From positions 46,168-110,167 of the forward strand of contig CAZAQA010000007.1 in NCBI GenBank assembly GCA_964487375.1: DNA of 64,000 bases. The letters are read 5' to 3'. The notes beneath the pieces were generated by a model that ran no database searches, had not been told where the DNA came from, and saw nothing but the letters and a program-made list of their open reading frames with translations. Position 1 is the stretch's first letter. Each line of letters starts with the position of its first letter. Shown here in pieces: positions 9,785-64,000 of this stretch. A program made the translations under genes and the position numbers. The DNA comes from an uncultured Anaerolineae bacterium. GTDB lineage: Bacteria; Chloroflexota; Anaerolineae; JAADDB01.

Positions 9785-10108
9785 GTGACACAAACGTCTG
9801 CCCTAGCGAAGGTTCACTCTCTGGCCAACATGGTGGCCTATCAAGAAGGTGCTATTGTCAGTCGCACGTTGATCAACAAAACCACCGGCACTGTGACTCT
9901 GTTCGCGTTCGATGCTGGCCAGAGCCTGACGGAGCACACTTCTCCTTACGATGCCCTGGTGTACATTTTGGACGGGGGCGCAGATATCACCGTCGATGGA
10001 GAGGTGTGTCGGGTGCATTCCGGCGAAAGTCTCCTTCTGCCCGCAAATCACCCTCACGCTTTGCGCGCGAGTGAACGCTTCAAGATGCTTCTGATCATGA
10101 TTCGATGA
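9785..10108 (+). CDS. Cupin domain protein
   Basis: Start assigned to the GTG that follows AGGAGGAGG. Cupin motifs are present (GAIVSRTL, FAFDAGQSLTEHTSPYDALVYILDGGADI, HSGESLLLPANHPHAL). Confidence 0.6.
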   Translation: MTQTSALAKVHSLANMVAYQEGAIVSRTLINKTTGTVTLFAFDAGQSLTEHTSPYDALVYILDGGADITVDGEVCRVHSGESLLLPANHPHALRASERFKMLLIMIR

Positions 10109-10139
10109 CTCCAACGTCTGCCTTAAAGGACGGGGAAGC

Positions 10140-47989: not shown

Positions 47990-48616
47990 TCAGAACAGGT
48001 TATCCGGCATGTCTCCTACGAAATAAGGCAAGTCTGCGTGCCCGAGCTGTTGGCGAACTGCATGAGCCTCGCCTGTGTGGAAGAAGTAATGGTAGGTAGT
48101 GCGCAGGACCTTGGTGCCTACGCTTTCGTCCGAGCGGACAAATCCCTGAGCCACCAGTGCTTCGGCCCTCTCTTTCGTGATGATCCCAAACACAGCACTT
48201 TTTAGTATCTCTGCTCCAGCACTCACGTCCTGTGTTAGATGTGTCCACAACTGTTCCTCTGTCAGTGTCGTCAGAAATCTGTCAGCGGCTTGGGTGATGT
48301 CATGCCACGCATCCCACATATCGGCCAGGGGAGGCGTCGAGGCTGGCTGGCCAAATCCCACCAATTTGTTCACGTTGGGCCAAGGCACTTCGCCTTGAGC
48401 AAAATAGACAAAATAGAACTGCTCCTGGGCTGCCATATGGCCGACCATCCAACTGATGCAGTTCATCGGCATGAGGCGACGACGTGCGTCTTCATCAGAT
48501 AAGCCTTCCAGACAGCGCACGAACTCACGGCGGGCGAAGCGGAGTTGTCTCACGAGGGGGTGGGGGACACTGATTCCAGTATATGTCTGTAAGTACTCGG
48601 CCTTTGTTCTAGGCAT
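47990..48616 (-). CDS. DinB/YfiT-like (DinB_2, DUF664) family protein
   Basis: About 208 aa with the DinB_2 metal-binding His pattern. The start is preceded by a tandem 15-nt duplication that includes the RBS. Confidence 0.6.
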   Translation of the reverse strand: MPRTKAEYLQTYTGISVPHPLVRQLRFARREFVRCLEGLSDEDARRRLMPMNCISWMVGHMAAQEQFYFVYFAQGEVPWPNVNKLVGFGQPASTPPLADMWDAWHDITQAADRFLTTLTEEQLWTHLTQDVSAGAEILKSAVFGIITKERAEALVAQGFVRSDESVGTKVLRTTYHYFFHTGEAHAVRQQLGHADLPYFVGDMPDNLF

Positions 48617-48779
48617 TCCTTCATTCCTTTCTCTATTCACCTTTCTCTATTCACTGGTTCAACTACGCATCAACTTGAGTGGAGGAGACGAAACCCACTC
48701 GATTCAACTTGATTTCATTATAGAAGGGCGGACTTAATGGAGACTAAACAGAATACCTGCTAAAGGGTGAGATGTGGCA

Positions 48780-51700
48780 TTAAACGGTTAAGTTGCAACG
48801 GTGTGCGAGATTTGTTTGCATTGCCGCGATATGTAAGAAGGTGTGTCGGAGAGCTTCATCTGTGAGATGCTCGGCAACATGGTGGATGATTTGGTGGGCA
48901 GTGACTAACTGTGCTTGGGCTTCTTGATGACGCCCTGCATTGACGTACAACGTGGCTAGTTGGGCGCGTCCTTGCCACCGAAGAGGTTGATAGTGAATTC
49001 CATCTGCCAATTGCACTGCGGCTTCCAATTCGTTGATGGCGTTGACCGTGCGCTTTAACCGAGATAGCGCTGAAGCGCTTAGTGAGCGATACTGGGCCAA
49101 GTACTTGCTTGCCGTAGCCGATTTCGCCAGCGCCAATCCCTCTTCCACTAGCGGAAACACAGCGGCTGGTTGGTTGAGGGCCAGATGACATGATGCTCGG
49201 GCGTGAAGGATGCGCAAGCGCCAGCGCCACGCGTGGAAACCAAAGCTGCCCGCTTTAATTCTGGCCTCGATGCCATCCAGCATTTCCATGGCCTGGCGCG
49301 GTTCTCCCATGTACAGCACATCAAGGCAGACATTGAGCCGGGCGCTCACTTCCGGTGGACCTTTGCCCCACTCTTGGGCCAGGGCAACCCCTTCTTGGTC
49401 CAGGTGCAGGGCCTGTTCAAAGGCCCCTAACTCACGATGAAGCCAGCCCAGCATATTGGGAATTTGGGCGATGAGGTATCCGTCGCCAACGGTCTCCGCC
49501 TCCACCTGGCTACGCTGGAATGCTCTCATCGCTTCTTGGTATTCACCATATCCGCCGTAAGCACGCCCCAGCAGGTTCCACGAGTAGGCCATGGACATTT
49601 TGTCTTCGAGCTCGGTCAGAGGTTGTAGTGCCCGCTTTATAGTAGTGATGGCCTGGGCAAACTCACCACGCTGGGTGTGGAGGAAGCCTGTTTCATTGAG
49701 GACGCAGGCTGCCAAGTGAACATCACTCAACTCGTCACTGAGGGTTTGCGCTCGGGTGATAGTGTCCAGGGCCTGATTTAGCAGTCCCTGGCCTTCGTAG
49801 ATCTCGGTGAGTAGTAACAGGTTTTGGGCGACTAACGCGTTGTCACCTGCCTGTTCGGCCGCGGATAATGCAGCGTAGACGTAGCCGGTGGTCACTTTGT
49901 GCTGTCGGTTGGCAAGCTGGGCTCGCGTGAACAGAAAGCGCGCTCGCCGAACGTTATCTTCGTGCATTTCCGCCAGGTGGATTCCTTGTTTTAGCGCTGC
50001 TGTCGCTCGAGCCGCGTGGTCTAGAAGCATAAAGGCCCGACTCAACCCTTCGTAGGCGTCCATCTCTTGCGCCGCCCCTTCGGCTAGGACTAAGGCTCGT
50101 TCATAGTGTTGTACAGCCTCTTGCAAAGCATAAGTGCGGAGGGCTTTTTCGCCTGCCAACAGCCAATAGACTCGAGCCCGGTTGGTGTCCCGAGCCCGTT
50201 CGAAATGGTAGGCCAAAAGTGCTGGCCGCTCTTTGGTCGATTGTTCCAAGGTTTTTGCAATTTGGCCATGATACATGACCCGACGCGTCTCGCTAAGGTC
50301 GTTGTAGACGACTTCGCGGATTTTGGAGTGACCAAAGTCGTAGCCTTCATCTATCTCTTGCCACAATTCTCGTTGCAGCAGGCTCTCCACGATCTCCAAT
50401 AGATCCAACGGATTCTGGCCAGTGATGGCTTGCAGGGTGGAGAAATCGAAATTCTGGCCAAACACAGCCATCCAACCCAATACCTGTCGCTCCAACGGCG
50501 CCACTTGCTGTAAGCGTCCTCGCACCGATGCTTGAATAGCTTCTGGCAAGGTGATATGAAGGGGTAAGTTCATGGCCGGCGCGGTTTCCTCTAGTTTTCC
50601 CTGTTCTTGCAATGCCTGAAGAATGGACACGAGGAAAAAGGGATTGCCGCTTGTTTCGTCATGAAGCCATTCACACCAGGTAAGAGGTACGACTTCTTGG
50701 GCTACCAGCAGTTCTTTGATATCAGCACTTGAAAGGCGGTCCAGAGTGATAAAAGTTGTGTGCGGCTCGCACTGGAGATGATGAACTAGCGCGGCCAAGT
50801 GCACATTTGCGGCCGCTTCCTCCTGGCGATAGGTGCAAACCAGCAATATCCTTTCAGCGGCGGCGCGTCGAGCCAGGTGGTGGAGAAATTGGAGTGTTGC
50901 CGTATCGGCCCAATGAATATCGTCGACATTGAGCATGAGACCATGTCCTCTAGCCATGGTTGACAACAGGTACACGATGGCCTGGAAAAGGCGTCCCTGC
51001 TGGCTTTTGGTCTGGATGGCGGAGGCGGTGGTCTGGTTTGTAGCAGCGATCTCCGGCGCCAAGGTCACGATTTCTCTCAACCAGGCTGCGGGCAACTCGG
51101 CAATTTTCTCCGGCCACACTGCGTTGATGTGCTGCACTAAATCAATGATGGGTTGGTAGGGGATGGTTTGCTCTACTTGGTAACTCCGGGCGAAGAGGAT
51201 GGTGAGGCCGCTGTTGCCGGCGAACACCGCTGCTTCCCGCATCAAGCGGCTTTTGCCAATGCCTGGCTCACCGCTTAGAAAGACCACGCCACCATGACCC
51301 TGGTTAACCAGGGCAGTTATCTGACTGTATTCGCGCGCTCGGCCCACAAATGGGGTTGGCCTGAGCAGATGGACACTAGCAGGTATCTGCTCAGGGCGTG
51401 GGTAGAGCTTGTCTCTGTCAACACTTGCTACCTGATGACGTTGAATTTGGTGAAAGAGTTCAGTCGTCTGTTGCGCCGGTTTGACGCCTATCTTTTCCCA
51501 CATCACTCGACGCACCTGGTTGTAGAGCTCCAGAGCCTCGGGCTGTTCACCAGTGCAGTAGAGGTACAGCATCAGTTGGCGATAGGTGGACTCGCGGGTG
51601 CTTTCGACTCCAAGACTTTGTCGACACAATCCGATCGCGTGGCGGTATTGCCCCCGACGTGCGTAGCCCTGCGCGAGGTCGGCCAACAAATTCAGGTACT

Positions 51701-52193
51701 GTTCCCGTAGCTGCTCGCGTGGGCCCAGCGCCCACTCTGCATAAGGATCATCCTCCATAAAGTCGCCTTGGTAAAGCTGCCGCGCCTTGTCCAGGGCGTC
51801 AATACGAAGGGCCAAGTCGGCTGTTTTTTGCGCCATATCAAGATAGTGGCTAAAGGCGTCAGCGTCGATCCAATAATCGCTGTTGGGATCGAACAGATAA
51901 CCTTCATCACACTTGACGATGTAATCGGAGGGAGCACGTGGCGGCAAGTCGGGCTGTAGCACGCGTCGTGCCTGTCCCACCGTCACCCAGAGATTATTGC
52001 GGGCCCTTTTGGGCACGAGATTAGGCCAGAGATACTCAATGAGCCGATCCGTCGAAACAAGATGTCCTCGTTTTGTGAGGAGAATTTTGAAGAGTTGCCT
52101 GCTTTTTGACGTCGGCCAGACGTTAGAAGAGATCGTTTCTCCGCCGCGCCACATGTGAAAGGGCCCCAGTGTTTGAATGCGGATATTCGGCAT
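48780..52193 (-). CDS. AfsR/SARP-family large regulator: OmpR-type wHTH, BTAD, STAND/NB-ARC-like ATPase, TPR repeats
   Basis: Trimmed to the ATG giving MPNIRIQTLGPF.... SARP DNA-binding and BTAD region. P-loop GEPGIGKSRL. Long C-terminal TPR-like array. Confidence 0.7.
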   Translation of the reverse strand: MPNIRIQTLGPFHMWRGGETISSNVWPTSKSRQLFKILLTKRGHLVSTDRLIEYLWPNLVPKRARNNLWVTVGQARRVLQPDLPPRAPSDYIVKCDEGYLFDPNSDYWIDADAFSHYLDMAQKTADLALRIDALDKARQLYQGDFMEDDPYAEWALGPREQLREQYLNLLADLAQGYARRGQYRHAIGLCRQSLGVESTRESTYRQLMLYLYCTGEQPEALELYNQVRRVMWEKIGVKPAQQTTELFHQIQRHQVASVDRDKLYPRPEQIPASVHLLRPTPFVGRAREYSQITALVNQGHGGVVFLSGEPGIGKSRLMREAAVFAGNSGLTILFARSYQVEQTIPYQPIIDLVQHINAVWPEKIAELPAAWLREIVTLAPEIAATNQTTASAIQTKSQQGRLFQAIVYLLSTMARGHGLMLNVDDIHWADTATLQFLHHLARRAAAERILLVCTYRQEEAAANVHLAALVHHLQCEPHTTFITLDRLSSADIKELLVAQEVVPLTWCEWLHDETSGNPFFLVSILQALQEQGKLEETAPAMNLPLHITLPEAIQASVRGRLQQVAPLERQVLGWMAVFGQNFDFSTLQAITGQNPLDLLEIVESLLQRELWQEIDEGYDFGHSKIREVVYNDLSETRRVMYHGQIAKTLEQSTKERPALLAYHFERARDTNRARVYWLLAGEKALRTYALQEAVQHYERALVLAEGAAQEMDAYEGLSRAFMLLDHAARATAALKQGIHLAEMHEDNVRRARFLFTRAQLANRQHKVTTGYVYAALSAAEQAGDNALVAQNLLLLTEIYEGQGLLNQALDTITRAQTLSDELSDVHLAACVLNETGFLHTQRGEFAQAITTIKRALQPLTELEDKMSMAYSWNLLGRAYGGYGEYQEAMRAFQRSQVEAETVGDGYLIAQIPNMLGWLHRELGAFEQALHLDQEGVALAQEWGKGPPEVSARLNVCLDVLYMGEPRQAMEMLDGIEARIKAGSFGFHAWRWRLRILHARASCHLALNQPAAVFPLVEEGLALAKSATASKYLAQYRSLSASALSRLKRTVNAINELEAAVQLADGIHYQPLRWQGRAQLATLYVNAGRHQEAQAQLVTAHQIIHHVAEHLTDEALRHTFLHIAAMQTNLAHRCNLTV

Positions 52194-52789
52194 AATCCTT
52201 TCTCTTTGATGTCCGTATTGCTCACATAGTCGCATGGAATGAACTCGCCGTTGGGCCGTGGGACGCTCGAAAGCACCTTGCATCAATGCACAGGTACAAG
52301 GGAACGCATGCAGGACTTGATACTGAGAAAATACGCCAAATATGCGCGAGGATGTGTTGGGATGTGGGGCCTTACATCGAGAGGATCGGTATCCTGGCGC
52401 GTCCCAATGTGGAAACAGTATAGCTTCTGTGCAGGGAAAGGGCAAATCCCTGTAGTTCGATCTGGTTTTCCGTCAATCGCCCTTCTCACCTGCGGGCTGA
52501 GCCTAGCAAGTGGCCATAGCTTCAAAACCGTACAAAATGCTTCCAGCTATCCTGGCTGCCAATTCCTTTTGATTTGTGCCTATTCTTTTTCCCTGTTTCC
52601 TTCATGGCCTTGTTTTCCATGGATTGGAAACGCGAACTCACACGCTCACGCTTCCCTCTCACACCTGTACACAGGAACCGTTCTGGAGGCATGAGGAATG
52701 AGAGGCTACGTGACCAGCGGTCGACGAAAATGATAATTCGAAGAGAAGGACCACTGAGCGGCCTCGTGGACGGGTTACTACAAGGGAGT

Positions 52790-54696: not shown

Positions 54697-56292
54697 TCAA
54701 TCCCCGAACCGGTTTATCTTGCGGTACAGAGCCTGGTTTCGCTTGTAGATCTCGACGAAAGCATTGAAGAGGTCGTCGTAGACGGTTTTGGTGCCCGGAT
54801 CGGGGGAGAATGTTTGCTCAATCTCCACATATTTGGAATAGCTTTCCAGTGTAGTCAGATTCAGCGCTAACCCGGCCAGCACTCCCAACCCTCGCAATCC
54901 CGCGGCCTGAGGGTCCTTGACCTGTCGGATGGGACGCTGGAGGACGTCGGCGAATATCTGGCACCACACATCGGATCGGCCGCCTCCGCCGATGATGTTG
55001 ATGGGCCCGAAACGACGCTTGACAAATTTCTCCACGTACATCAGGAGCCAACGAGTATTCAGCGCCACTCCCTCGAAGACTGCTCGTACCAGGTCCGCGC
55101 GGGAAATACCCAGGGACAGGTTGTAGAATCCGCCCCGTAAGGTCGGATCGTCTACAGGCGTCCTCTCGCCATAGAGCCAGGGTGTAAAAATGACGCCGCC
55201 GCTGCCGGGAGACGCTTTGGCGGCCATTTCGTCCAAGCGCCGGTAGGCGTTCGCCGGGGCGCGACCAGTGCCCAGAATGTCATCGCCGTAGAACACCTTG
55301 TCTCGGAGGAAGGTGAGGGCGACCCCAGAGGTTTCCTGTTCGTTCGCCACGAAGTACCTTCCCGGGATGGACGACGGCATGGAGGCCATGTTATGGAACA
55401 GGTCGGTCTTCTTGTACGGCACATGGCAGGTGAGCCACGAGGACGTGCCGACATAAATGTGCGGCTCGAAGTCCTTTACCGCCCCGGAACCGAGAACAGG
55501 AGCCTGCACGTCCGGAGCTCCCATGGACACGGGCAGACCTGTCGGCAGATCCATTGCTTCGGCCGCCTCTGGCCGCAGTTCCCCGAGGATGCGGGTCGTA
55601 GGGTAAAGGTCGGGCAGCTTCTCTCGCTCGATTCCTGCCATTCTGAGCAGACGTGGGTGGTAGCGGATATCGTTGATGTCGCGGTTGTCCGTGAGCCAGT
55701 GCAGACCAACGGTAGCATAGTCGGAGGCCATCTTGCCCGTCAGGAGGAAGTTCAGGTAGTCCTTCGGCTCCAGGAACTTGTACGCCTGTCGGTACACCTC
55801 CGGGCGTTTGTTCTTGATGAAGAGAATGTGGGCGATAGAGTCCTTGCCGGAGTGGGTCGGAATGCCACCCGTAAGTCGTATCCACGTCCAGATTTTGTCC
55901 AGCCCGTACCCTTCCACCTTGATCAGGCCGCCGGTGATCTCCTTCACGTAGGGCGCCCCGCGGGTGTCCATCCAGATGATGGCGTTCCCCAATGGCTTCC
56001 CGTCCCGGTCCACGGCCACGGTTCCGGACCAGTGGACGCTGACGGAGAGGGCGACCACCTGCTCTCGTGGTGTTTTGGTTTCGTGGAGCAGTCGCCGTGT
56101 GGTGGATGTGACTACCTTCCACCAGTCCGCCGTGTCCTGCTCCGCGCCCCCTCCGGGGATAAAGTAGGTGGGCGTGGCGTCGGATTCCTCCGTGTACGCC
56201 ACGATCTTGCCGTTTGGAGTCACGAGGCCGACTTTACAGGCGGTGGTACCAAGATCGACAGCCAACACAAGGGGTTTATTCTGTACGGACAT
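54697..56292 (-). CDS. FGGY family carbohydrate/polyol kinase
   Basis: Start at the ATG after GGAAGGAG. FGGY N-terminal (AVDLGTT) and C-terminal domains. Confidence 0.75.
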   Translation of the reverse strand: MSVQNKPLVLAVDLGTTACKVGLVTPNGKIVAYTEESDATPTYFIPGGGAEQDTADWWKVVTSTTRRLLHETKTPREQVVALSVSVHWSGTVAVDRDGKPLGNAIIWMDTRGAPYVKEITGGLIKVEGYGLDKIWTWIRLTGGIPTHSGKDSIAHILFIKNKRPEVYRQAYKFLEPKDYLNFLLTGKMASDYATVGLHWLTDNRDINDIRYHPRLLRMAGIEREKLPDLYPTTRILGELRPEAAEAMDLPTGLPVSMGAPDVQAPVLGSGAVKDFEPHIYVGTSSWLTCHVPYKKTDLFHNMASMPSSIPGRYFVANEQETSGVALTFLRDKVFYGDDILGTGRAPANAYRRLDEMAAKASPGSGGVIFTPWLYGERTPVDDPTLRGGFYNLSLGISRADLVRAVFEGVALNTRWLLMYVEKFVKRRFGPINIIGGGGRSDVWCQIFADVLQRPIRQVKDPQAAGLRGLGVLAGLALNLTTLESYSKYVEIEQTFSPDPGTKTVYDDLFNAFVEIYKRNQALYRKINRFGD

Positions 56293-56628
56293 CTCATCTT
56301 CTCCTTCCACCTGTGAGGGCATGGCTCATCCACGTCCTTGCCGCCGTGGTCATCTTGGCTGGCGAGGCCTCTGGGTGGCAAGCGGTTCCTGGAGATTATA
56401 ACGTTCCAGTGCGAGGAAACGCAACCCACCGGATCGCGTCCCAAGAGACCCGACTGACCCGGTCTCCGACATGGGACCCTCGGCCTTGAACCCCGCCAAA
56501 TGGCCTATGTGCTGCCCCGTCAAATAGCCCTTGTTTTCCCCGCGAGTCATGCTACATTGGATAGAAAGGGCCGATGTACGCCCGACCGCAGATGATGGTC
56601 AACAATTCTCCACAACTGAGGTGAACAA

Positions 56629-57132
56629 ATGGCAAAATCGTACAAGAAGAAGCGACGTCGGAGCTCCTCTCACCGACGGGAGCGGAGATCGTCGCCCCTG
56701 TGGGCCTGGCTGCTTCTCGTGGGAGGCTCATTGGCAACCATTGTGCTGATCGTGTTGGCTGTGCGTTACGCCAGTGGCGCTACGGGTGGAACGTACTATC
56801 CACCGACAGACACCGCAGGTCACGCGGAAACGTCTCCGCCCTCTCACATCCTCGAGCGTCCGCTGCCTCTGGCCACGTTCAAACACATGCTGGAACATGC
56901 GGACGGGAGCGGGCCGCCTGGGGTTATCATCAGCTATAACTGCGATGACTACGACTGCCAGCCGGACTTCGTCGACCGTTTGCGGGCCATTGCCGAGGAC
57001 TACCCCGACTTCGTCTACCTGGCTCCATTCCCCGGCATGACCGCGAAGCTCGCGGTCACGAGGCGGGGAAAACAAGTAATCCTGGACGAGTTCGACGAGC
57101 AGCGGATTCGGAACTTTATCGAGGGGGGATAG
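56629..57132 (+). CDS. DUF3105-like membrane-anchored protein
   Basis: 167 aa. Basic N-terminus plus one TM helix, and a C-terminal soluble domain. Family assignment is from recall only. Confidence 0.4.
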   Translation: MAKSYKKKRRRSSSHRRERRSSPLWAWLLLVGGSLATIVLIVLAVRYASGATGGTYYPPTDTAGHAETSPPSHILERPLPLATFKHMLEHADGSGPPGVIISYNCDDYDCQPDFVDRLRAIAEDYPDFVYLAPFPGMTAKLAVTRRGKQVILDEFDEQRIRNFIEGG

Positions 57133-57185
57133 TAGCACCACCCCGAGGTGTTTACAAAAGAACAGGTTCAGGGGTCACAGGGGAG

Positions 57186-57899
57186 ATGACTACAACAGGA
57201 GCACGCGTGGTGACAGCATTGGACAGTATCAGCCATTGGGTGGCGGCCCACTGGCTGGCCCTGGTCAACACAGCTTGGGGCATACTCGTGACGGTACCCT
57301 GGCTGGCCCCTGTGGCCATGCACAGCGGGTGGACGCGATTGGCCAACGCCATTTACTTCACGTACAGCTTCTTGTGCCACCAGTACGCCAATCGCTCTTT
57401 TTTCCTCTTTGGCCCCAAGGTGATGTACGCGCACACGGAACTGCTCCCCTACGCAGCCAATATCGGCACCTGGTGGGGCTTACGCGCGTTTCGGGGTGCG
57501 CCTGGGCTAGGGTACAAGGTCGCCTGGTCCGACCGCATGGTCTGGATGTATGGGAGCATTTTTGCAGCAGGACTTTTGTTCGCGTTGGTGCGCAGGAAGG
57601 TGCGTCCCCTTCCCTGGCTCGCCTTCGTTCTGCTCCTTGCTCCCCTGGCCCTGGATGGGGGCACCCACTTCATCAGCGACCTGTTTGGCGTGGGACAGGG
57701 ATTTCGATACACCAACGGGTGGCTGGCCGTTCTGACAGGGAACGCGTTGCCCGCGTATTTTTATGTCGGCAACGCCCCGGGATCCTTCAACTTTCTGATG
57801 CGATTCATTACCGGTGTCATCTCCGGTCTGGCCATCGTGTGGTTTGTGTATCCCCGCTTGCAACGAGCTCTTGGTTTGGCAGGACAAAGTGCAAGGTGA
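57186..57899 (+). CDS. DUF2085 family integral membrane protein
   Basis: 237 aa polytopic membrane protein with the CHQ motif region (FLCHQYANRSF). Confidence 0.5.
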   Translation: MTTTGARVVTALDSISHWVAAHWLALVNTAWGILVTVPWLAPVAMHSGWTRLANAIYFTYSFLCHQYANRSFFLFGPKVMYAHTELLPYAANIGTWWGLRAFRGAPGLGYKVAWSDRMVWMYGSIFAAGLLFALVRRKVRPLPWLAFVLLLAPLALDGGTHFISDLFGVGQGFRYTNGWLAVLTGNALPAYFYVGNAPGSFNFLMRFITGVISGLAIVWFVYPRLQRALGLAGQSAR

Positions 57900-58197
57900 G
57901 CCAGAGGTCGCTTGTAACAGCCGCAGGTCTCCTCTATACTCCGAAAGGGCATTGCAGGAACGCGCGCAGCATGGCCTCATCTGCTCACTACAGAAAAGAC
58001 GTGTGCTATGATTCTCTTTCGGGTTGGTCGGTGTGGGAACCTGCAAAGTAGGATACGTATAGGCCATTCGGCGGGGGAAAGGCCGCGCTGAATGGCGGTT
58101 GTAGCAAAGGGGTGAAGGTGTCATAATAAAACCAGAAAAGTGCGTTTTGTTTTGTGCCCATCGCGAGGGGCTTCAAGCTGGAGGAAGGAACAGATCT

Positions 58198-58641
58198 ATG
58201 AAGAGACGTCATCTGGTCATGCTTATCAGCACACTAGTTTTGATCGGTACGGTGACCGCGTGCGCGGGCGGGAGTGAACGGAAGCCCCCGACGGCTCGGG
58301 ATTCCCAGAAGAACGCGGACGGTTATGTGGACATTTCTGTGGACCGGCTGGCCCAAATGTTGGAGGACAAAAACGTTGTGCTCGTCAACGTTCACATCCC
58401 TTACGAGGGAGAGATTCCTGGCACCGATCTCTTCATCCCGTTCAACGCCATTGCAGACAATCTGGACAAGTTGCCTGATAAGAACGCACGGATCGTGCTT
58501 TACTGCCGCAGTGGCTCAATGAGCACGGTTGCAGCCAGGACCCTGGCTTCGCTGGGGTACACGAATGTCTATGAACTAGACGGCGGCTTCAATGCCTGGA
58601 AGGCCAGTGGCCGACCTCTTGTCGGGCAACAATCACAGTAA
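58198..58641 (+). CDS. Rhodanese-domain lipoprotein (sulfurtransferase-like)
   Basis: Start at the ATG after GGAGGAAGGA. Lipobox (VTACAGG). Active-site loop CRSGSMS. Confidence 0.7.
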   Translation: MKRRHLVMLISTLVLIGTVTACAGGSERKPPTARDSQKNADGYVDISVDRLAQMLEDKNVVLVNVHIPYEGEIPGTDLFIPFNAIADNLDKLPDKNARIVLYCRSGSMSTVAARTLASLGYTNVYELDGGFNAWKASGRPLVGQQSQ

Positions 58642-58676
58642 GGGCGGCCCGCAGAGCGCCCTCAGGAGGAATGAAT

Positions 58677-59078
58677 ATGGAATACACACAGTACGGTATC
58701 CGGATCAAGGTCAATATGTCCTACGAACAAGCTGTCGAGAAGGTGACAGCCGCGCTTAAGCAGGAAGGCTTCGGCATCCTGACCACCATTGACGTGAAGG
58801 AAACGCTGAAAAAGAAGTTAGACGTGGACTTTCGCAAATACGTCATCCTGGGCGCGTGTAATCCGCCTTTGGCCTATCGCGCCTTAACTGCGGAGCAGGA
58901 GATCGGTTTGCTGCTCCCCTGCAATGTCATCATTTACGAAGGGGCTGGGGTCACCATCGTGGCCGCGGCTGATCCTATTCCCATGATGGGCATCGTTGGG
59001 AATGAGGCACTGAATGAAGTGGCGCGAGAAGCGCGAACACGCCTGGTGCGCGCCCTGAGTGCGGTTGAGGGACGATAG
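58677..59078 (+). CDS. DUF302 domain protein
   Basis: About 133 aa. DUF302-like pattern ([24 protein letters not shown]). Confidence 0.55.
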
Positions 59079-59128
59079 ACGAGACTCGTTCATTGTTTTA
59101 TTGTCCATCACCCGGAGAGGAGGTCACC

Positions 59129-61327
59129 ATGCACGAGAAGCACACCCATGATCCTGGACATGAGGAACATGTCCACCCCGCGGGTCACAGCCATGGATCC
59201 GTGGATCACAACGAACATACATCCCACGTTACACACGCCGAGCACAGCAAGCACGGCGACCATGAAAGCCACCAGACACACGCCGAACACGGCAGCCACG
59301 AAGGGCATGGAGAACATGGAGGGCACGAGGGGCACGAAGGGCATGAAGAGCATGGCGGTCACCACAGCCATCACGCCCATATGGTGGCCGACTTCCGCCG
59401 TCGCTTCTTCATCGCCCTGGTATTGACCATCCCTATCATACTCACGGCGCCCCTCGTTCAGCGCGTCTTTGGCTTTACCTTGTCGCTTCCGGGTGACCCC
59501 TGGACGCGCTGGGTGCTCTCCTCCATTGTCTTCTTCTACGGCGGCTGGCCATTCCTCAAAGGCTTCGTGGACGAGATGCGTCAGCGTCAACCGGGCATGA
59601 TGACGTTGATTGCGCTGGCCATCACCGTGGCTTACGTCTACTCCAGCGCGGTCGTCTTCGGCCTAAAGGGGAAAGTCTTTTTCTGGGAACTGGCCAGCCT
59701 GATCGTGGTCATGCTCTTGGGCCACTGGATCGAGATGCGTTCTATCCTGGGCGCGTCACGAGCCCTGGAAGAACTGGTCAAACTCTTGCCTGCAGAAGCT
59801 CACCTTGTGTTACCCGACGGTGCGGAGAAGGACGTGCCCGTCAGTGAGCTCAAACCCAACGACCGAGTGCGCGTCCGCCCTGGGGAGCAAATCCCCGTGG
59901 ACGGCGTGGTGGTCGAAGGCGCGTCCAACGTCAACGAAGCCATGCTCACCGGTGAGTCCAAGCCGGTGTCCAAAGGGGTGGGCGACCAGGTCATCGGTGG
60001 GGCGCTCAACGGCGAAGGGTCGCTGGTTATCGAGGTGCAGCGCACGGGCAAGGACACCTACCTGGCTCAGGTTATCGACCTGGTACGTCAGGCCCAGGAG
60101 ACCCGCTCTCGTACTCAGGACCTGGCCAACCGCGCTGCACTCTGGTTGACGATTATCGCCATCACCGTAGGAGCGGGAACGTTTGTTATCTGGCTGGCGC
60201 TGGGTAAGGATCTGGCCTTCGCGCTGGAACGGACGGTTACCGTGATGGTTATCGCCTGCCCTCACGCGCTAGGCCTGGCCGTACCCCTAGTAGTGGCCGT
60301 CTCCACGTCTCTCTCGGCGCAGAACGGCCTGCTCATTCGCGACCGCAGCGCGTTCGAACGAGGCAAGGACGTGAACGCCGTCATTTTCGACAAGACAGGC
60401 ACCCTCACGGAGGGACGCTTCGGTGTCACCGACGCCATCTCCCTCGGCGAGCGAGACGAGGACGACGTCCTGCGCCTGGCTGCATCTCTGGAGTGGGCCT
60501 CAGAACATCCCATCGCGCGCGGTATTGTGGAGAGCGCCCAGACGCGAGGCATGCGTCCCGTTCCTGTAGCAGATTTTCGTGCCCTCCCTGGCAAGGGCGT
60601 GGAGGGACACATCGACGGGCATCTCTATCGTGTGGTCAGTCCTGGCTATCTCACCGAGAACGGATTGGATGTCAAAGATGCACGTGTGGTTGAAGCCGCA
60701 GCCCAGGGCAAGACTGTGGTCTTCCTGCTGGAAGGGAACAAGGTTATCGGTGCCATCGGCCTGGCCGACATCGTCCGTCCTGAGTCCATTGAGGCGGTGA
60801 AGCGACTCAAGGATATGGGGGTGCAGGTCATGATGCTGACAGGGGATAGCAGGCAGGTAGCTGCCTGGGTGGCCCAGGAAATCGGCCTGGATGAGTTCTT
60901 TGCCGAGGTACTGCCCCACGAGAAGGCGGCGAAGGTGAAGGAAGTACAATCCCGCGGCATGATTGTGGCCATGGTGGGTGACGGTGTGAACGATGCTCCG
61001 GCACTGGTTCAGGCAGACGTGGGCATTGCCATCGGCGCAGGCACAGACGTGGCTGTGGAAGCCGCGGACATCGTGCTGGTGCGCAATGATCCACGAGACG
61101 TGGTCGCCGTGGTTCGCCTGTCCAAGGCTACCTACCGCAAGATGCAGGAGAATCTTCTCTGGGCTACGGGCTATAATGCTCTGGCCATTCCGTTGGCCGC
61201 GGGTATCTTATATCCGGTAGGGATTCTGCTTTCGCCCGCGTTTGGCGCCCTGCTCATGTCTCTCTCTACCGTCATCGTGGCCGTGAACGCCCAGCGTTTG
61301 TGGAGTTTCAAGCGCCAGGCAGTGTAA
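59129..61327 (+). CDS. copB: Heavy-metal P1B-type ATPase, CopB-like (CPH motif; His-rich N-terminus)
   Basis: Start at the ATG after GGAGAGGAGG. About 80-aa His-rich N-terminal tail. TM CPH motif (IACPHALG). DKTGT and GDGVNDAP motifs. Confidence 0.8.
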
Positions 61328-61435
61328 CGTCATACCTTTGGGCGAAGGCGGACAAGCATACCGACTGATTAGCACCAGGGGGAGCACCGCCATGCTGTGT
61401 TCCCCCTGCTCTCAAGGGGAAAGAAGGCTTATGGC

Positions 61436-64000
61436 ATGAACATACACAAAGATACAATCCTGATCACGGGTACCAGCGGACGGCTCGGTTATCCCGTGGC
61501 CCAGAAGTTAGCATTATCCTACAACGTTGTTGGCTTTGACCGCCGTGCCCCCTCCCATCCTCCTCCCACTGCGGAATGTTTGTACGTGGACCTCGTTTCA
61601 GAAGAAAGCGTCCGTCGTGGATTGCAAGCCATTTTGGATCTTCACGGCAACCATTTTACGTCGGTTATCCATCTTGCCGCGTACTACGATTTCTCAGGTA
61701 TGCCCAGTCCCCTTTATGACCAGGTGACCGTTCAGGGCACAGCGCGACTGCTTGAACTGTTACACGAATTAGGCTTTCAAGTGGACCAGTTCATCTTCTC
61801 CAGTACCGAGTTAGTGCACGCACCCTCCCGCCCTGGCGAACGTATCACGGAGGATTTTCCTCTCCGCCCCGCCTGGCTTTATCCCGAGTCCAAAGTCAAG
61901 ACCGAACGCGTCATCCACAACTTGCGGGGGGACATTCCCGCGGTTATCCTGCGCATTGGGGGAGTCTATGATGACTTGTGCGACTCCATTCCCCTTGCCC
62001 AGCAGATTCAGCGCATTTACGAACAGGATATCACCGCGTACTTATTCCCGGGCGATCTCTCCGCGGGCCGTCAAGCATTTGTGCATCTGGACGATGTAGT
62101 TGATGCCATTCTGCTTGCAGTGGAGCGGCGTAAGGAACTGCCGCCAGAATCGGTCTTCCTCATTGGCGAGGAGGACTCTCTCAGTTATGGTGAGCTGCAG
62201 GAGATGTTCGGTGAACTTGTCCACGGTGTTGCCTGGCGAACATTTTCCATTCCCAAATCGTTGGCCAAGGTTGGGGCCTGGTTGCAGGACAGATTGCCTC
62301 TGAACCGCCCCCCTTTTATCAAACCATGGATGATCGACTTGGCCGATGACAACTTCGAGGTGGATATCACGCGCGCTCGCACCCTCCTGGGATGGGAGCC
62401 CAAACATTCCCTGCGCGAGACGCTGCCCAAGATGGTGCTGGCCCTCAAAGCCGATCCCTTTGCTTGGTACCGCGAAAACGGATTGAAGCGACCACTGTGG
62501 CTTGAGGAACTGGCTCCGTCCAAAGAGTTGGCCGACGAGATGGTCCCCCAGGAGCTGATGCGGCTGGGAGAAGAAGTGCAGCAGGTTATTGCTTCTCCCG
62601 CCAAGGGCGTGTCCAGCCCGGCACAGGAGCACGCGGAGATGCACAGCCATGATATGGTCATGTCTCCGCCTAATGAGGCCGAGGCTGAACTACGCGCTCA
62701 CGAAGCTGAGCTGGAACGGTTGCGCGTGTTGCAGGCGCGGCTGGAACGTGCTTACGAGCGCGAGGTAGTCGCACAGCGTGAGGAAGACGCGCTCGCCCAT
62801 CGCTTGATGGAGAGCGACCCGCGACGCCACGTGGAAGTCATGAAGATGAAGCAGAAGCACCGCCAGTTGGCCCTCGAACTACCTCGCGTCCTATTGCAGT
62901 ACGAAGCCCAGGTCTATCAGGCGCTGCTGAAAGCGTGGCAGGTAGCCAGTGTCCGCTGGCCCGACACTAGCACCATGATGGCGAACATGGTGGGCATGGC
63001 ACGCTGGTCCCAGATCCCTCTCCTCGTGCTGGGTGCTTGGCTCATTTCCAGTCCGTTCATTATGGGATATAAGACGCCTGGGTCCGTGTGGAGTGATGTT
63101 ATCAGTGGTGTGCTGGTTATGGTGCTGGCTTTACTGGCCTTTCGCACGGGTCGGGCCTTGTTTGCCTGGGGAAGCGCGTTTGTAGGGCTGTGGCTGGCCC
63201 TTTCCCCCCTCATCTTCTGGACGCCAAGCGCGGCCGCGTATGGCAACGACACCCTGGTGGGAATGCTGGTCATCACCTTTGCCGTGCTCATTCCCATGAT
63301 GATGAAGATGCCGGGACCTGAAGTGCCTCTAGGGTGGTCGTACAATCCTTCCAGTTGGATGCAGCGGGCACCCATCCTTGCCCTGGCTATGGTGAGTTTC
63401 CTCATGTCCCGCTACATGGCAGCGTTTCAGTTAGGGCATATCTCCTGGGCCTGGGATCCCGTCTTTGCAAAGGGGACCGTACAGGTACTCACGTCCGATG
63501 TGTCCAAAGCCTTTCCCATTTCGGATGCCGGGCTGGGCGCGTTCACCTACCTGGTGGAATTGCTCTCGGGGTTCATGGGGGATGCGCGGCGCTGGCGCAC
63601 CATGCCCTGGATGGTGGCCCTGTTCGGCTTCATGGTCGTGCCTCTAGGCATAGTAAGTGTGATTCTGGTCACGTTGCAACCTGTGGCTGTGGGCGCATGG
63701 TGCTTGTGGTGTCTTCTCTCCGCCTTTTTCATGCTTATCATGGTAGCGCTGTCGCTGGATGAGGTGATTGCCATGCTTCAATATCTGCTGCAAGCGCGAC
63801 GCGCGGGCAAGTCGGTCTGGCACACCTTCTGGCTGGGTGGTGACGCTCTAGGCGATTATCTCACACCTCAGCGGCCCACGAGACCTGCTCGTTTCGGTGA
63901 AATGTTCTGGGGGATGCGCGTTCCCTGGAATCTGCTGGTTGTTGCGGGCCTGGGGGTCTGGTTGATGATGTCGCCTTCCATCTTCGGAACAGGAGGGGTA
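61436..64000 (+). CDS. NAD-dependent epimerase/dehydratase domain fused to a coiled-coil linker and a C-terminal SPW-repeat-like/CxxC polytopic membrane domain; 3'-truncated at the window end
   Basis: Open frame of 855 codons with no stop before position 64000, so it is missing from the six-frame track. Rossmann GxxGxxG motif (ITGTSGRLGYPV). Heptad-rich AEAELRAHEAELERLRVLQARLERAYE. TM helices containing SP motifs (LISSPFIMGY, LALSPLIFW, MMSPSIFG) and CLWC. Confidence 0.6.
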   Translation, partial: MNIHKDTILITGTSGRLGYPVAQKLALSYNVVGFDRRAPSHPPPTAECLYVDLVSEESVRRGLQAILDLHGNHFTSVIHLAAYYDFSGMPSPLYDQVTVQGTARLLELLHELGFQVDQFIFSSTELVHAPSRPGERITEDFPLRPAWLYPESKVKTERVIHNLRGDIPAVILRIGGVYDDLCDSIPLAQQIQRIYEQDITAYLFPGDLSAGRQAFVHLDDVVDAILLAVERRKELPPESVFLIGEEDSLSYGELQEMFGELVHGVAWRTFSIPKSLAKVGAWLQDRLPLNRPPFIKPWMIDLADDNFEVDITRARTLLGWEPKHSLRETLPKMVLALKADPFAWYRENGLKRPLWLEELAPSKELADEMVPQELMRLGEEVQQVIASPAKGVSSPAQEHAEMHSHDMVMSPPNEAEAELRAHEAELERLRVLQARLERAYEREVVAQREEDALAHRLMESDPRRHVEVMKMKQKHRQLALELPRVLLQYEAQVYQALLKAWQVASVRWPDTSTMMANMVGMARWSQIPLLVLGAWLISSPFIMGYKTPGSVWSDVISGVLVMVLALLAFRTGRALFAWGSAFVGLWLALSPLIFWTPSAAAYGNDTLVGMLVITFAVLIPMMMKMPGPEVPLGWSYNPSSWMQRAPILALAMVSFLMSRYMAAFQLGHISWAWDPVFAKGTVQVLTSDVSKAFPISDAGLGAFTYLVELLSGFMGDARRWRTMPWMVALFGFMVVPLGIVSVILVTLQPVAVGAWCLWCLLSAFFMLIMVALSLDEVIAMLQYLLQARRAGKSVWHTFWLGGDALGDYLTPQRPTRPARFGEMFWGMRVPWNLLVVAGLGVWLMMSPSIFGTGGV

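Follow-up and report, generated by a model that had tools for sequence, protein, structure and literature searches.

An extended SDR fused to a predicted twelve-helix SPW/VKOR-like membrane protein in an uncultured Anaerolineae bacterium

The window, a stretch of 64,000 nucleotides from the genome of an uncultured Anaerolineae bacterium, ends within a real gene. This gene joins a NAD-binding reductase, predicted to be cytoplasmic, to a 12-helix membrane protein with a VKOR-like core. The fusion is the less common state of a conserved module of two genes, one for an SDR and one for a membrane protein. The clade has lost the canonical VKOR cysteine relay, and the module tends to sit, without exclusivity, in copper/heavy-metal resistance islands. 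This descriptive part of the best explanation is held with high confidence. Taken as a whole, the best explanation is given slightly less than an even chance. It states that this is an SDR-fed, quinone-linked membrane redox module that would act at the outer face under copper or oxidative stress.

Reading Frame and Gene

The frame at 61436-64000 on the forward strand contains 855 codons and zero stops in the translation of the window. It is absent from the lists of open reading frames because it runs past the end of the window, as the original prediction had stated. The N-termini of homologs coincide with its ATG start. One homolog (P0001) is 91% identical, 940 aa long, and collinear with the frame. 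Judged from this protein, about 85 C-terminal residues, the remainder of the second SPW bundle, lie downstream of the window. A search of other genomes, which had been proposed as a check, returned 11 full-length homologs, independent of one another and drawn from assemblies in ENA, JGI, Logan, and NCBI. These are 59-91% identical, 940-1000 aa in length, and collinear over 100% of the query. The domain set of the window protein is common to more than 1,288 proteins. Thus, the fused frame is not a frameshift artefact, and the feared split into two ordinary genes was not borne out. The translation is coherent, and every domain that had been named in it is supported by Pfam. The features are listed in Table 1.

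Table 1. Features of the fusion gene and of the genes upstream of it (positions in the window; aa, residues of the fusion protein).
Feature	Position	Strand	Basis or remark
DUF3105, DUF2085, rhodanese, and DUF302 genes	56629..59078	+	Upstream of CopB
CopB-type copper-exporting P1B ATPase, CPH motif, His-rich N-terminus	59093..61327	+	TIGR01511, 635 bits against a cutoff of 397
Shine-Dalgarno-like GGGGAAAGAAGG	61416..61427	+	Read from sequence; 8 nt 5' of the ATG start
Fusion gene SDR-linker-SPW-VKOR-like-SPW, 3'-truncated, 855 of ~940 codons	61436..64000	+	Open throughout; collinear with full-length homologs
Extended SDR domain, predicted cytoplasmic, aa 1-350	61436..62485	+	Pfam Epimerase and GDP_Man_Dehyd; Foldseek
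TGTSGRLG dinucleotide-binding motif, aa 11-18	61466..61489	+	T11, G12, G15, G18 at least 90% conserved
Asp35, end of beta-2	61538..61540	+	Invariant in family alignment
SST, catalytic Ser/Thr position, aa 122-124	61799..61807	+	S123 invariant; S122, T124 at least 90% conserved
YPESK, catalytic Tyr and Lys, aa 149-153	61880..61894	+	Y149, P150, S152, K153 invariant, n=114 sequences
Cytoplasmic linker, aa 351-522, variable in family	62486..63001	+	Alignment and composition
Met/His-rich patch HAEMHSHDMVM, aa 399-409	62630..62662	+	6 of 11 residues are Met or His
Predicted antiparallel helical hairpin, aa 414-507	62675..62956	+	AF2 helices 414-460, 462-507
SPW domain 1, four TM helices, aa 523-621	63002..63298	+	Pfam SPW; AF2 helices 523-543, 548-571, 574-593, 599-621
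VKOR-like four-helix core, aa 641-789	63356..63802	+	
Outer-face TM1-TM2 loop with cap helix, aa 666-696	63431..63523	+	No Cys; P675, F677, S687, S690, P694 conserved
RRWRTMPWM, cytoplasmic TM2-TM3 loop and TM3 start, aa 718-726	63587..63613	+	Positive-inside count fits cytoplasm
CLWC, VKOR-type CxxC, outer end of TM4, aa 756-759	63701..63712	+	Conservation
Glu776, intramembrane acidic residue, TM4	63761..63763	+	132/132 representatives
SPW domain 2 start, first TM helix only	63926..64000	+	Remainder past window

The SDR Domain and the Linker

A Rossmann epimerase/dehydratase domain was correctly read at the N-terminus, where an extended SDR of about 350 aa has intact cofactor and catalytic motifs. 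Pfam identified Epimerase (PF01370) at aa 8-244 (E 2.5e-21, 76.6 bits against a cutoff of 20.9). It also identified GDP_Man_Dehyd end to end at aa 9-333, over profile positions 1-332 of 332. Foldseek comparisons of the domain with GalE, GMD, and RmlB gave target-normalised TM-scores of 0.65-0.79. The Rossmann fold with TGxxGxxG and the C-terminal substrate domain are those of an extended SDR. No signal peptide was found on the SDR, and its first Rossmann strand, beta-1, already starts at residue 7. The catalytic set S123/Y149/K153 (YxxxK) is intact and is invariant in 114 sequences. Asp35 at the end of beta-2 suggests, by comparison with SDRs in general, a preference for NAD(H) over NADP(H). 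The family also has an invariant motif of its own, FIKPWMIDxAxD.

The window SDR missed the equivalog cutoffs for GalE (TIGR01179, 46.7 against 262.3), HpnA (TIGR03466, 42.9 against 367.65), and RmlD (20 against 224). Hopanoid-associated HpnA is among its best full-length resemblances in NCBIfam, with a score far under the cutoff. Many family members have precomputed Pfam matches to 3Beta_HSD and NAD_binding_4. One homolog (P0008) bears the source name 'UDP-glucose 4-epimerase', which the same GalE score leaves unsupported.

The linker had been described as a coiled coil. The segment is predicted to form an antiparallel helical hairpin. The hairpin is specific to the clade of the window protein, and its columns (aa 414-507) are gapped in more than 50% of 116 aligned family sequences. 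Across the family, the linker is variable (21-247 aa) and rich in methionine and histidine, which make up 13.2% of linker residues against 5.4% of the rest of the protein. The patch HAEMHSHDMVM is the site of the gene junction in split orthologs, in which one protein ends in ..EHGKA (stop) and the next begins with MAKHDM...

The Membrane Domains

The SPW repeats that had been recognized in the membrane part are confirmed by Pfam (PF03779, aa 524-616, E 4e-15, 56.4 bits against a cutoff of 31.5). In the window protein, SSPF, LSPL, and MSPS can be read as instances of the S/A-P-W/F/L motif. A specific PDB relative of the first SPW domain was looked for and none was found. Full-length homologs have two SPW domains, and in P0001 the helices of the second are 831-850, 854-873, 880-900, and 905-922. 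An earlier count of at least five TM helices was conservative, as AF2 places nine in the window, four in the first SPW domain, four in the VKOR-like core, and the first of the second SPW domain. The full-length AF2 model has a pLDDT of 88.9 and a pTM of 0.82, so the arrangement of the domains is confidently predicted. The SDR comes first, without a signal peptide, and is followed by 4+4+4 TM helices with 12 lysines and arginines inside and 2 outside. In the predicted topology and domain packing, the SDR is cytoplasmic and the CxxC lies at the outer face of the membrane.

Pfam also identified VKOR (PF07884) at aa 646-773 (E 3.7e-19, 69.6 bits against a cutoff of 27.5) over 132 of 134 profile positions, and orthologs score 55-82 bits. 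The core is a bundle of four TM helices whose TM1-TM2 loop bears a cap helix, as in VKOR. Thus, both Pfam and the fold bear out the suggestion that the CxxC domain is like VKOR/DsbB. In the VKOR family, Cys43, Cys51, Ser57, Cys132, and Cys135 are listed as fully conserved, and sequences without the conserved residues were removed from the reference phylogeny (PMC4555120). The loop pair of cysteines was found in none of 137 representatives of the present clade. The loop has zero cysteines in 132 of these and a single one in the other five; the window protein has zero. The CxxC is kept in about 95% of representatives while the loop pair is gone. It is conserved in 100% of 116 family members and in 125-126 of 132 diverse representatives. 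Located at the outer end of VKOR helix 4, it holds the only conserved cysteines of the 12-TM module. In the loop motif VLTSxVS, S687 (127/132) and S690 (111/132) are candidate counterparts of the loop Ser/Thr of VKOR (human Ser57), although residue-level alignments of the loop with canonical VKOR were not reliable. R719 (132/132) and W720 (131/132) are conserved on the cytoplasmic side.

Solved VKORs are beyond the reach of the clade by sequence, even with a profile search. A weak hhalign alignment (E 0.024) places CLWC on FCIVC of human VKORC1 (C132/C135), and active-site equivalence beyond the CxxC would rest on this alignment. Two MxxM pairs, M723/M726 and M766/M769, and the residues E708/E776 are invariant in 114 close relatives. 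The same four methionine positions are kept in only 57%, 26%, 68%, and 61% of the 132 diverse representatives, and no column reaches 80% methionine. A thioredoxin-fold domain was not found in the window protein or in 20 scanned orthologs. Genes resembling SCO1 or the thioredoxin fold were read by eye, without Pfam, in 3 of 77 loci.

Distribution of the Module

The clade contains 293 clusters at 50% identity (E <= 1e-30). The architecture was found in at least 535 matching stretches in species genomes and in 137 plasmids. No description of the SDR-SPW-VKOR-like-SPW architecture was found in the searchable literature, and the sole literature found on SPW proteins was one structure-prediction paper. 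The original prediction had called the fusion an architecture that is not commonly described, which agrees with this literature search, but the architecture is common in databases. Current annotations of these proteins conflict and partly mislead ('UDP-glucose 4-epimerase', 'NAD-dependent epimerase/dehydratase', 'vitamin K epoxide reductase family protein', and 'SPW repeat protein').

Of 77 loci, about 40 have the SDR and membrane genes as separate neighbors, and among 94 diverse representatives 85 are membrane-only proteins. Split pairs are encoded by same-strand open reading frames, and in the clearest cases these overlap by 4-14 nt or are separated by 9-42 nt. In the closest genome relatives, at about 70% identity (L004, L006, and L024), the fusion is replaced by two genes with an overlap of 14-20 nt where the window protein has its Met/His patch. 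Fusions are also annotated by NCBI in finished plasmids of isolates, Rhodanobacter (848 aa), Alteromonas (824 aa), and S. meliloti (847 aa). Hosts in culture include Sinorhizobium meliloti (pSymB), Stutzerimonas stutzeri, Alteromonas macleodii MIT1002, Rhodanobacter denitrificans, Pontibacter, Marivirga, and haloarchaea.

Other SDRs can take the place of the extended SDR. In L050, L059, L062, L071, and S. stutzeri, a PRK07109-type classical SDR comes after the membrane gene, and in Haladaptatus an NDUFA9-family SDR does so. A second, independent fusion (P0121) joins the membrane module to a classical SDR. Thus, the membrane module occurs with three unrelated SDR types, two of which are also found fused to it. 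The three types are mutually dissimilar (E 1.5 for the window SDR against the NDUFA9-family partner), which argues for a generic NAD(P)H-dependent step and against a specialised sugar-nucleotide reaction. At some membrane-only loci (L067 and L079), there is no SDR within 10 kb.

Gene Neighborhood

A gene for a CopB-type ATPase lies directly upstream on the same strand, and its true start is probably the ATG at 59129. A scan of the 108 nt between it and the fusion gene found no terminator. Clusters with the rhodanese-like and DUF302 open reading frames of the window recur in L007, L008, L024, and L026, and DUF2085 is again near the ortholog in L089. Of the 29 loci with flanks of 15 kb or more, 19 have metal genes and 15 have a P1B ATPase. 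Multicopper oxidase, CusA, and CusB are recurrent neighbors according to Pfam. The curated plasmid islands of Rhodanobacter, Stutzerimonas, Haladaptatus, and Alteromonas have a copper/heavy-metal context as well. Csp-like four-helix copper proteins adjoin the module in one bacterium and one archaeon.

Pfam identified the domain HMBD (PF19335) in L007, L015, L046, and L073, where it is N-terminal in the membrane subunit, and in L011, where a separate upstream open reading frame encodes it. A regular expression found an HMBD-like motif inside the target gene or genes in 12 of 77 loci. The HMBD motif (YTCPMHPE...GxCPxCGM) was found neither in the window protein nor in the linkers of its 114 closest relatives.

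Not all neighbors are related to metals. The S. meliloti gene is next to a ZIP transporter in a region that also has catalase and DNA ligase genes, and other loci have genes for glucoamylase/GH15, glycogen phosphorylase, and G6PD. The 7.3-kb contig of an 84%-identical homolog contains no metal gene. Methyltransferases of the ICMT/PEMT type and UbiE-like methyltransferases recur near the module. Glycosyltransferases, lipid-synthesis operons, and sugar-nucleotide pathway genes do not recur in these neighborhoods. In Haloarchaeobius (L062), a stand-alone SPW copy is located beside the module (9995-10387). Two features say most about the module, its copper-resistance context and its lack of the VKOR loop cysteines, and neither was part of the original prediction.

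Proposed Function

The protein may be a three-part membrane oxidoreductase, made up of a cytoplasmic extended SDR that probably uses NAD(H), a Met/His-rich linker, and a 12-TM SPW/VKOR-like/SPW module. Direct electron transfer from NAD(P)H to the CxxC, as the original prediction implied, is unlikely, as the two are on opposite sides of the membrane in the predicted topology. A membrane carrier such as quinone would therefore be needed. The SDR could dock on the conserved cytoplasmic face of the VKOR-like core, at R719/W720/E776 and the GWSYNPSSW motifs. There it would reduce a membrane quinone with NAD(P)H, and the VKOR-like core would couple quinone/quinol to the single CxxC at the outer face. 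The module might keep the quinone pool or the CxxC reduced. Alternatively, it might act on a small extracytoplasmic oxidant in copper/oxidative stress. Such an oxidant might be Cu(II), an aberrant disulfide, or a quinone in oxidised or epoxidised form. Since the loop-cysteine relay is lost, the module would act without a protein thiol relay. Redox sensing, which had also been suggested, found no specific support.

The mechanism from SDR to quinone to VKOR-like core to CxxC is tentative. Quinone-reducing SDRs are a minority of the superfamily, and the reduction of a CxxC from quinol is thermodynamically unfavourable with ubiquinone. Both points count against it, as does the range of the family, which spans ubiquinone-using Proteobacteria as well as menaquinone users. 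A bolder form, a thiol-relay-independent 'NADH-driven VKOR', is doubtful. In this form, the cytoplasmic SDR would charge a quinone bound in the VKOR-like core, and that quinone would then drive the single CxxC at the outer face. The result would be a trans-membrane conduit from NAD(H) to extracytoplasmic thiol/copper redox, comparable in function to DsbD/ScsB but made of other components, and it would spread horizontally in copper islands. It might interconvert Cu(II) and Cu(I), or it might repair disulfides induced by copper or quinone that has been oxidised or epoxidised.

The neighborhood of copper exporters, multicopper oxidases, and Csp-like proteins also fits a protein that handles copper itself. 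The CxxC would be a Cu(I)/Ag(I) site together with the TM3/TM4 methionines and the HMBD or the Met/His linker, and the SDR would keep the thiols reduced or regulate the site. The protein could then act as chaperone, conduit, or cuprous/cupric oxidoreductase. The loss of the protein thiol relay leaves the CxxC free as a ligand site, and the MxxM pairs and E708/E776 are invariant among the close relatives. However, the methionines are not kept across the clade, and the HMBD that some orthologs carry is confined to a minority of loci and absent from the window protein. VKOR-fold proteins are not known to bind or transport metal, and SDRs move hydride to carbon centres rather than to metals. Copper handling of this kind is unlikely.

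The resemblances of the SDR to HpnA, 3Beta_HSD, and NAD_binding_4 point to a second alternative, in which it modifies a membrane lipid or isoprenoid. The substrate would be a lipid other than quinone, for example one of the hopanoid or sterol-like kind, a fatty aldehyde, or a sugar linked to polyprenyl. The role of the SPW-VKOR-like module would be to present this substrate, and the CxxC would be structural. The recurring methyltransferases fit this reading, and VKORs of giant viruses have been proposed to act in lipid-modification modules (PMC13486548). Against it, all specific SDR models score far under their cutoffs, and no glycosyltransferase or lipid-synthesis operon recurs nearby. The interchange of three unrelated SDR types is hard to square with a stereospecific lipid reaction, and a CxxC kept at the catalytic position of canonical VKOR speaks for a redox role. 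This alternative is quite improbable.

It is very unlikely that the protein is an ordinary DsbB/VKOR disulfide-forming enzyme, which would oxidise a periplasmic DsbA-like partner and pass electrons to quinone with the SDR as a passenger. The VKOR fold, the CxxC, and the SCO1/thioredoxin-fold-like genes of three loci are consistent with such an enzyme, but the loop pair is missing in 137/137, there is no fused thioredoxin-like domain, and the linkage to an SDR is kept through fusion, adjacency, and substitution. An assembly or sequencing artefact, a frameshift or missing stop that merged two neighboring genes, is effectively refuted, since the same uninterrupted fusion is found in 11 assemblies from four sources and in finished plasmids and the linker stays in frame throughout with a confidently predicted hairpin, even though the junction of the two-gene relatives falls exactly at the Met/His patch.

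Comparison with Known Systems

Stand-alone SPW proteins (PF03779) share with the module the four-TM bundle of two SPW repeats, whereas the window polypeptide has a VKOR-like core between two such bundles. GalE, GDP-mannose 4,6-dehydratase, RmlB/RmlD, and HpnA share with the window SDR the Rossmann domain, the C-terminal substrate domain, TGxxGxxG, and S/T-Y-K. Unlike them, it is under every equivalog cutoff, has FIKPWMIDxAxD, and is tethered to a membrane protein.

NAD(P)H:quinone reductases active next to VKOR or quinone sites (FSP1, NDH-2, QOR2-type SDRs, and the complex I subunit NDUFA9) offer a possible analogy, as each sets an NAD(P)H-binding protein on the cytoplasmic side against a site for membrane quinone. 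Among the natural partners of the membrane module, one carries an NDUFA9-family annotation. The window SDR differs in that it lacks a flavin domain and is dissimilar to that partner, and quinone reduction is putative here. A link to copper tolerance is known for NDH-2 and for copper-induced quinone reductases. DsbD/CcdA and ScsB are membrane proteins whose cysteine pairs bring reducing power from the cytoplasm to the outer face, and Scs is tied to copper tolerance. The likeness to the module is by analogy only. Their fold is unrelated and they are thioredoxin-fed thiol-disulfide cascades, whereas the module has a single CxxC and a NAD-binding SDR, so electrons could pass between them only by way of a quinone.

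VKOR and DsbB are viewed as quinone-linked machines that need a second cysteine pair to trade electrons with thioredoxin-like proteins. The clade breaks this rule. Human VKORC1, the VKORs of Synechococcus and Mycobacterium, and plant LTO1 possess the loop pair Cys43/Cys51 that is absent across the clade. The clade also has no thioredoxin-like domain or partner, is tied to cytoplasmic SDR enzymes, places its core between two SPW four-helix bundles, and has R719, W720, and E776 as its own invariants on the cytoplasmic side. The relay has been dropped, and NAD-binding SDRs have been recruited at least three times independently, twice by fusion. If the SDR does feed the VKOR-like site, this would be a new route that couples cytoplasmic NAD(H) to outer-face chemistry and a natural model of thiol-independent recycling of the VKOR active site. 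It would also be an unrecognised, horizontally mobile part of the copper-resistance islands of bacteria and archaea. Since several hosts of the module are cultured and tractable, the hypothesis is directly testable.

Domain architecture of the fusion protein

An 855-codon open reading frame is found at 61436-64000 (+). It is stop-free over its whole length, and the original prediction that it is a real gene, absent from ORF lists only because it overruns the window end, holds. Its ATG lies 8 nt past GGGGAAAGAAGG, a ribosome-binding-like run. The approximately 85 residues beyond the window are the remainder of a second SPW bundle, as judged by P0001, a full-length homolog of 940 aa that is 91% identical. 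The epimerase/dehydratase, SPW, and VKOR/DsbB-like assignments made earlier were borne out by a Pfam domain scan, in which Epimerase (aa 8-244), SPW (aa 524-616), and VKOR (aa 646-773) all matched above gathering scores. The GDP_Man_Dehyd profile aligned end to end with aa 9-333. The CLWC pair that had been pointed out (aa 756-759, nt 63701-63712) is the VKOR-type CxxC. A frameshift or assembly artefact is a less likely explanation and was dismissed because independent fused homologs exist: 11 of them, 59-91% identical, are collinear across the entire query, and NCBI annotates such fusions on finished Rhodanobacter, Alteromonas, and Sinorhizobium plasmids.

A confident AlphaFold2 model was built for P0001 from a 114-sequence alignment (pLDDT 88.9, pTM 0.82), and its segments are listed in the table. 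The SDR has no signal peptide and is placed ahead of 4+4+4 helices, and the loops carry 12 K+R inside versus 2 outside. From this, the SDR, the linker, and the RRWR loop are predicted to be cytoplasmic, and the outer face is predicted to carry the TM1-TM2 loop and the CxxC, as it does in canonical VKOR. Met and His are enriched 2.4-fold in the linker of fused proteins.

Features of the window and of the modelled homolog P0001
Feature	Position	Strand	Remarks
DinB/mycothiol-S-transferase-like protein	47990-48640	-	
BTAD/AAA/TPR (SARP/MalT-like) regulator	48780-52445	-	1221 aa
DUF3105, DUF2085, rhodanese, and DUF302 genes	56629-59078	+	same-strand run immediately 5' of copB
CopB-type P1B-3 copper ATPase	59093-61327	+	CPH transmembrane motif; TIGR01511 635 bits (cutoff 397)
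Inverted repeat CAGGGGGAGCAC...GUGUUCCCCCUG	61376-61410	+	12-bp hairpin in the spacer between copB and the fusion gene
SDR	aa 1-350		AlphaFold2 model of P0001
Poorly ordered stretch with Met/His patch HAEMHSHDMVM	patch aa 399-409		AlphaFold2 model of P0001
Long antiparallel helical hairpin	aa 414-507		AlphaFold2 model of P0001
12 TM helices (4 each in SPW1, VKOR-like core, SPW2)			AlphaFold2 model of P0001

The SDR retains the TGxxGxxG motif and has Asp35 at the end of beta-2, S123, Y149, and K153, these four residues being invariant. An Asp at the end of beta-2 in SDRs points to NAD(H), and Asp35 thus suggests NAD(H) as the cofactor here. Because the cofactor and catalytic motifs are intact, the SDR looks catalytically competent. 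It scored far under every curated equivalog cutoff (GalE, 46.7 versus 262; HpnA, 42.9 versus 368), and a fold search with the full-length model returned generic SDR matches only. By its modelled fold, it would be classed only as a generic extended SDR. Like GalE, HpnA, and RmlD, it is an extended SDR, yet it is none of those three.

A VKOR-like core without loop cysteines

Canonical VKORs are defined by five fully conserved residues, namely two cysteines and one serine of the loop and both cysteines of the CxxC, and sequences without these residues were left out of the reference VKOR phylogeny (PMC4555120). The loop cysteine pair is present in none of 137 diverse representatives of the family studied here (a single loop cysteine occurs in 5, and the other 132 lack any). 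Approximately 95% of them retain the CxxC. A thioredoxin-like domain was not found by Pfam in the fusion protein or in the scanned orthologs. Other residues are invariant across the clade. On the cytoplasmic side or toward it these are R719 (132/132), W720 (131/132), and E776 (132/132), together with R644, which occurs in all 115 representatives having a residue at that position. On the outer side P675, F677, S687, D697, and Q748 are invariant.

Neither phmmer with the VKOR region nor hmmsearch with a 20-sequence family profile found a VKOR among PDB sequences, so the assignment rests on Pfam and on the fold comparison, which for the membrane part required a membrane-only model. An exhaustive profile search of 1.84 billion representative proteins gave 293 clusters under a threshold of E <= 1e-30, and 827 when this was relaxed to E <= 1e-10. 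The core has a VKOR fold and scores above the Pfam threshold, but one defining catalytic feature, the loop cysteine pair, is missing. The proper label for it is a divergent VKOR-like clade, not a vitamin K epoxide reductase.

Fused and split forms of the module

The analysis covered 80 species-genome loci drawn from at least 535 matching stretches. Represented among them are Chloroflexota, Bacteroidota, Acidobacteriota, Gemmatimonadota, Nitrospirota, Planctomycetota, Verrucomicrobiota, Deinococcota, Myxococcota, Pseudomonadota, Nitrososphaeria, and Halobacteria. Some of the 80 loci have a single ORF and approximately 40 have two adjacent same-strand ORFs, the SDR (~350-420 aa) coming before the membrane protein (~480-590 aa). 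In the clearest split cases the two ORFs share 4-14 nt or lie 9-42 nt apart. The nearest genome relatives among the matches listed are Anaerolineae (70-75% identity), which makes a Chloroflexota origin of the window probable. In these relatives there are two genes, and the break between them falls precisely where the window has its Met/His patch. Of 94 complete representatives at 50% identity, 85 are membrane-only, 8 have an N-terminal extended SDR, and one, P0121, is fused otherwise, its C-terminal SDR being of the classical adh_short type. The fused gene is one of the states in which a module of two genes, for an SDR and a membrane protein, occurs.

Where the extended SDR is lacking, a different SDR is found immediately 3' of the membrane gene. 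This partner is a classical SDR of the PRK07109 type, ending in a TM tail, in Thermomicrobiales, in Myxococcota, in two haloarchaea, and in S. stutzeri. These SDRs, the archaeal ones included, are 50-60% identical to the Marivirga copy. The Haladaptatus SDR in this place is annotated as 'complex I NDUFA9 subunit family'. Pairwise similarity of these alternative types to the SDR of the fusion protein was not detectable. Since three SDR types are paired with the membrane module, an NAD(P)-binding SDR has been recruited repeatedly, and this recurrence strongly supports a functional coupling of the two. It also speaks for the SDR being a generic hydride donor rather than catalyzing a specific sugar-nucleotide reaction.

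Two further observations concern the partners. On the Haladaptatus plasmid (L087, 10396-11981) a DoxX family membrane protein comes next after the SDR; in mycobacteria, DoxX and rhodanese form a thiol-stress complex, and a rhodanese gene is also present in the window's own cluster. Three Nitrososphaera/Thermoproteota loci (L035, L039, and L041) have extended SDR orthologs 67-69% identical to the SDR of P0001, and the membrane module was not found within the 3-16 kb available per locus. The partner may be elsewhere in these genomes, or the SDR may also work alone.

Genomic neighborhood and metal context

In the window, a same-strand gene for a CopB-type copper exporter ends 108 nt before the fusion gene. 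The listed TTG start of copB is probably too far upstream, and ATG 59129 (MHEKH...) is the likelier start. The CopB N-terminus has approximately 90 His-rich residues with HxH/HEGH repeats. A scan of the spacer between the two genes found no terminator. The spacer hairpin folds, but the folding energy of the spacer is no better than that of shuffled sequence (z = -1.5), and a T-run is missing after the hairpin. The run from DUF3105 to DUF302, copB, and the fusion gene may be one metal/sulfur-stress operon. DUF2085 is again found upstream of the ortholog in L089. The search for a regulator upstream of the cluster gave no Pfam match, either for the small ORFs within 56168-56749 or for the alternative ones within 57236-58124. 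The BTAD/AAA/TPR regulator and the DinB-like gene, ~10 kb upstream on the opposite strand, are, as far as can be told, unrelated.

Metal-homeostasis genes were present in 19 of the 29 loci having at least 15 kb of flank, and a P1B ATPase in 15. Chance adjacency to a P1B ATPase is roughly estimated at a few percent, assuming that a genome has 1-5 of these genes. Recurrent neighbors include multicopper oxidase, CusA, and CusB. HMBD was identified by Pfam at the N-terminus of the membrane subunit in four loci (L007, L015, L046, and L073), and a regex found an HMBD-like motif inside the module gene(s) of 12 of 77 loci. Curated plasmid records give the same picture. On a Rhodanobacter denitrificans plasmid, the fusion is flanked on one side by a P-ATPase, TolC-RND, a copper-binding protein, and DUF305, and on the other by MerR/MerT/HMA and ars genes. 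On an S. stutzeri plasmid, the gene for a Csp-like copper-binding protein with four helices is followed by those for the membrane protein and the SDR, and GH15 comes next on the opposite strand. The Haladaptatus pair adjoins a P-ATPase, an HMA protein, DoxX, and plastocyanins. The metal link is not exclusive. The S. meliloti pSymB gene adjoins a ZIP transporter, with catalase and DNA ligase genes in the region, and metal genes are absent from the short contig of one close homolog.

Four genes are common to Haloarchaeobius (L062, 9472-14869) and the S. stutzeri plasmid (L086, 8384-13288). These encode a Csp1-like four-helix-bundle copper-binding protein, an SPW-VKOR-SPW protein, a PRK07109-type SDR, and a GH15 glycoside hydrolase. 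Their arrangement is not the same in the two, and GH15 also differs in orientation. The set suggests a horizontally transferred unit. Upstream of the module in L062 (9995-10387, +), a stand-alone 130-aa SPW repeat protein is encoded beside the copper-binding protein, which hints that SPW bundles may act as separate subunits.

A second theme recurs in L033, L048, L070, and L078, and in L018, L027, L044, and L073, among others. It comprises a putative glucoamylase (PF10091) or GH15, glycogen phosphorylase-like and glucose-6-phosphate dehydrogenase-like (G6PD) proteins, and a universal stress protein, some of these labels coming from reading of the sequence rather than Pfam. It may indicate a general-stress or NADPH-supply link.

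Possible function and comparison with known systems

The descriptive claims, as a whole, are held with high confidence. The original prediction also suggested an electron-transfer or redox-sensing membrane protein. Direct transfer between the NAD-binding enzyme and the CxxC is unlikely, because the two are predicted to be on opposite sides of the membrane. VKOR folds couple a CxxC to a bound quinone. In the most economical model, the cytoplasmic SDR would reduce membrane quinone with NAD(P)H, and the VKOR-like core, lacking loop cysteines, would link the quinone to the outer-face CxxC with no protein relay. The module would then serve envelope protection in copper or oxidative stress. As a whole, this mechanism is put forward tentatively, and the odds are somewhat against it.

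The main rival is that the CxxC binds or transfers copper. A conserved methionine ladder, acting as a Cu(I) conduit, was predicted under it, but the invariance of M723/M726 and M766/M769 is limited to close relatives, and across 132 diverse representatives they are 26-68% conserved. The ladder idea is therefore weakened and was downgraded. Less likely are an ordinary DsbB-like role, for a core that keeps its CxxC and has no loop pair, and a lipid-modifying role of the module.

A full-text search of the literature found no study describing the SDR-SPW-VKOR architecture, the loop-cysteine loss, or the copper linkage, in agreement with the earlier remark that this fusion is not commonly described. 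SMb20013 is named once, as a 'putative oxidoreductase' in a PhaR regulon table, and that entry is probably the neighboring Gfo/Idh/MocA gene. The module matters since it is mobile and widely distributed, has been mis-annotated, and can be tested directly in organisms that are in culture.

There are precedents for the parts of the quinone-linked mechanism. Lactococcus has copper-induced quinone reductases, and cupric reductase activity is a property of NDH-2. Copper tolerance also involves two thiol systems, Scs and DsbD, and FSP1 is an NAD(P)H-dependent vitamin K reductase that works alongside VKOR.
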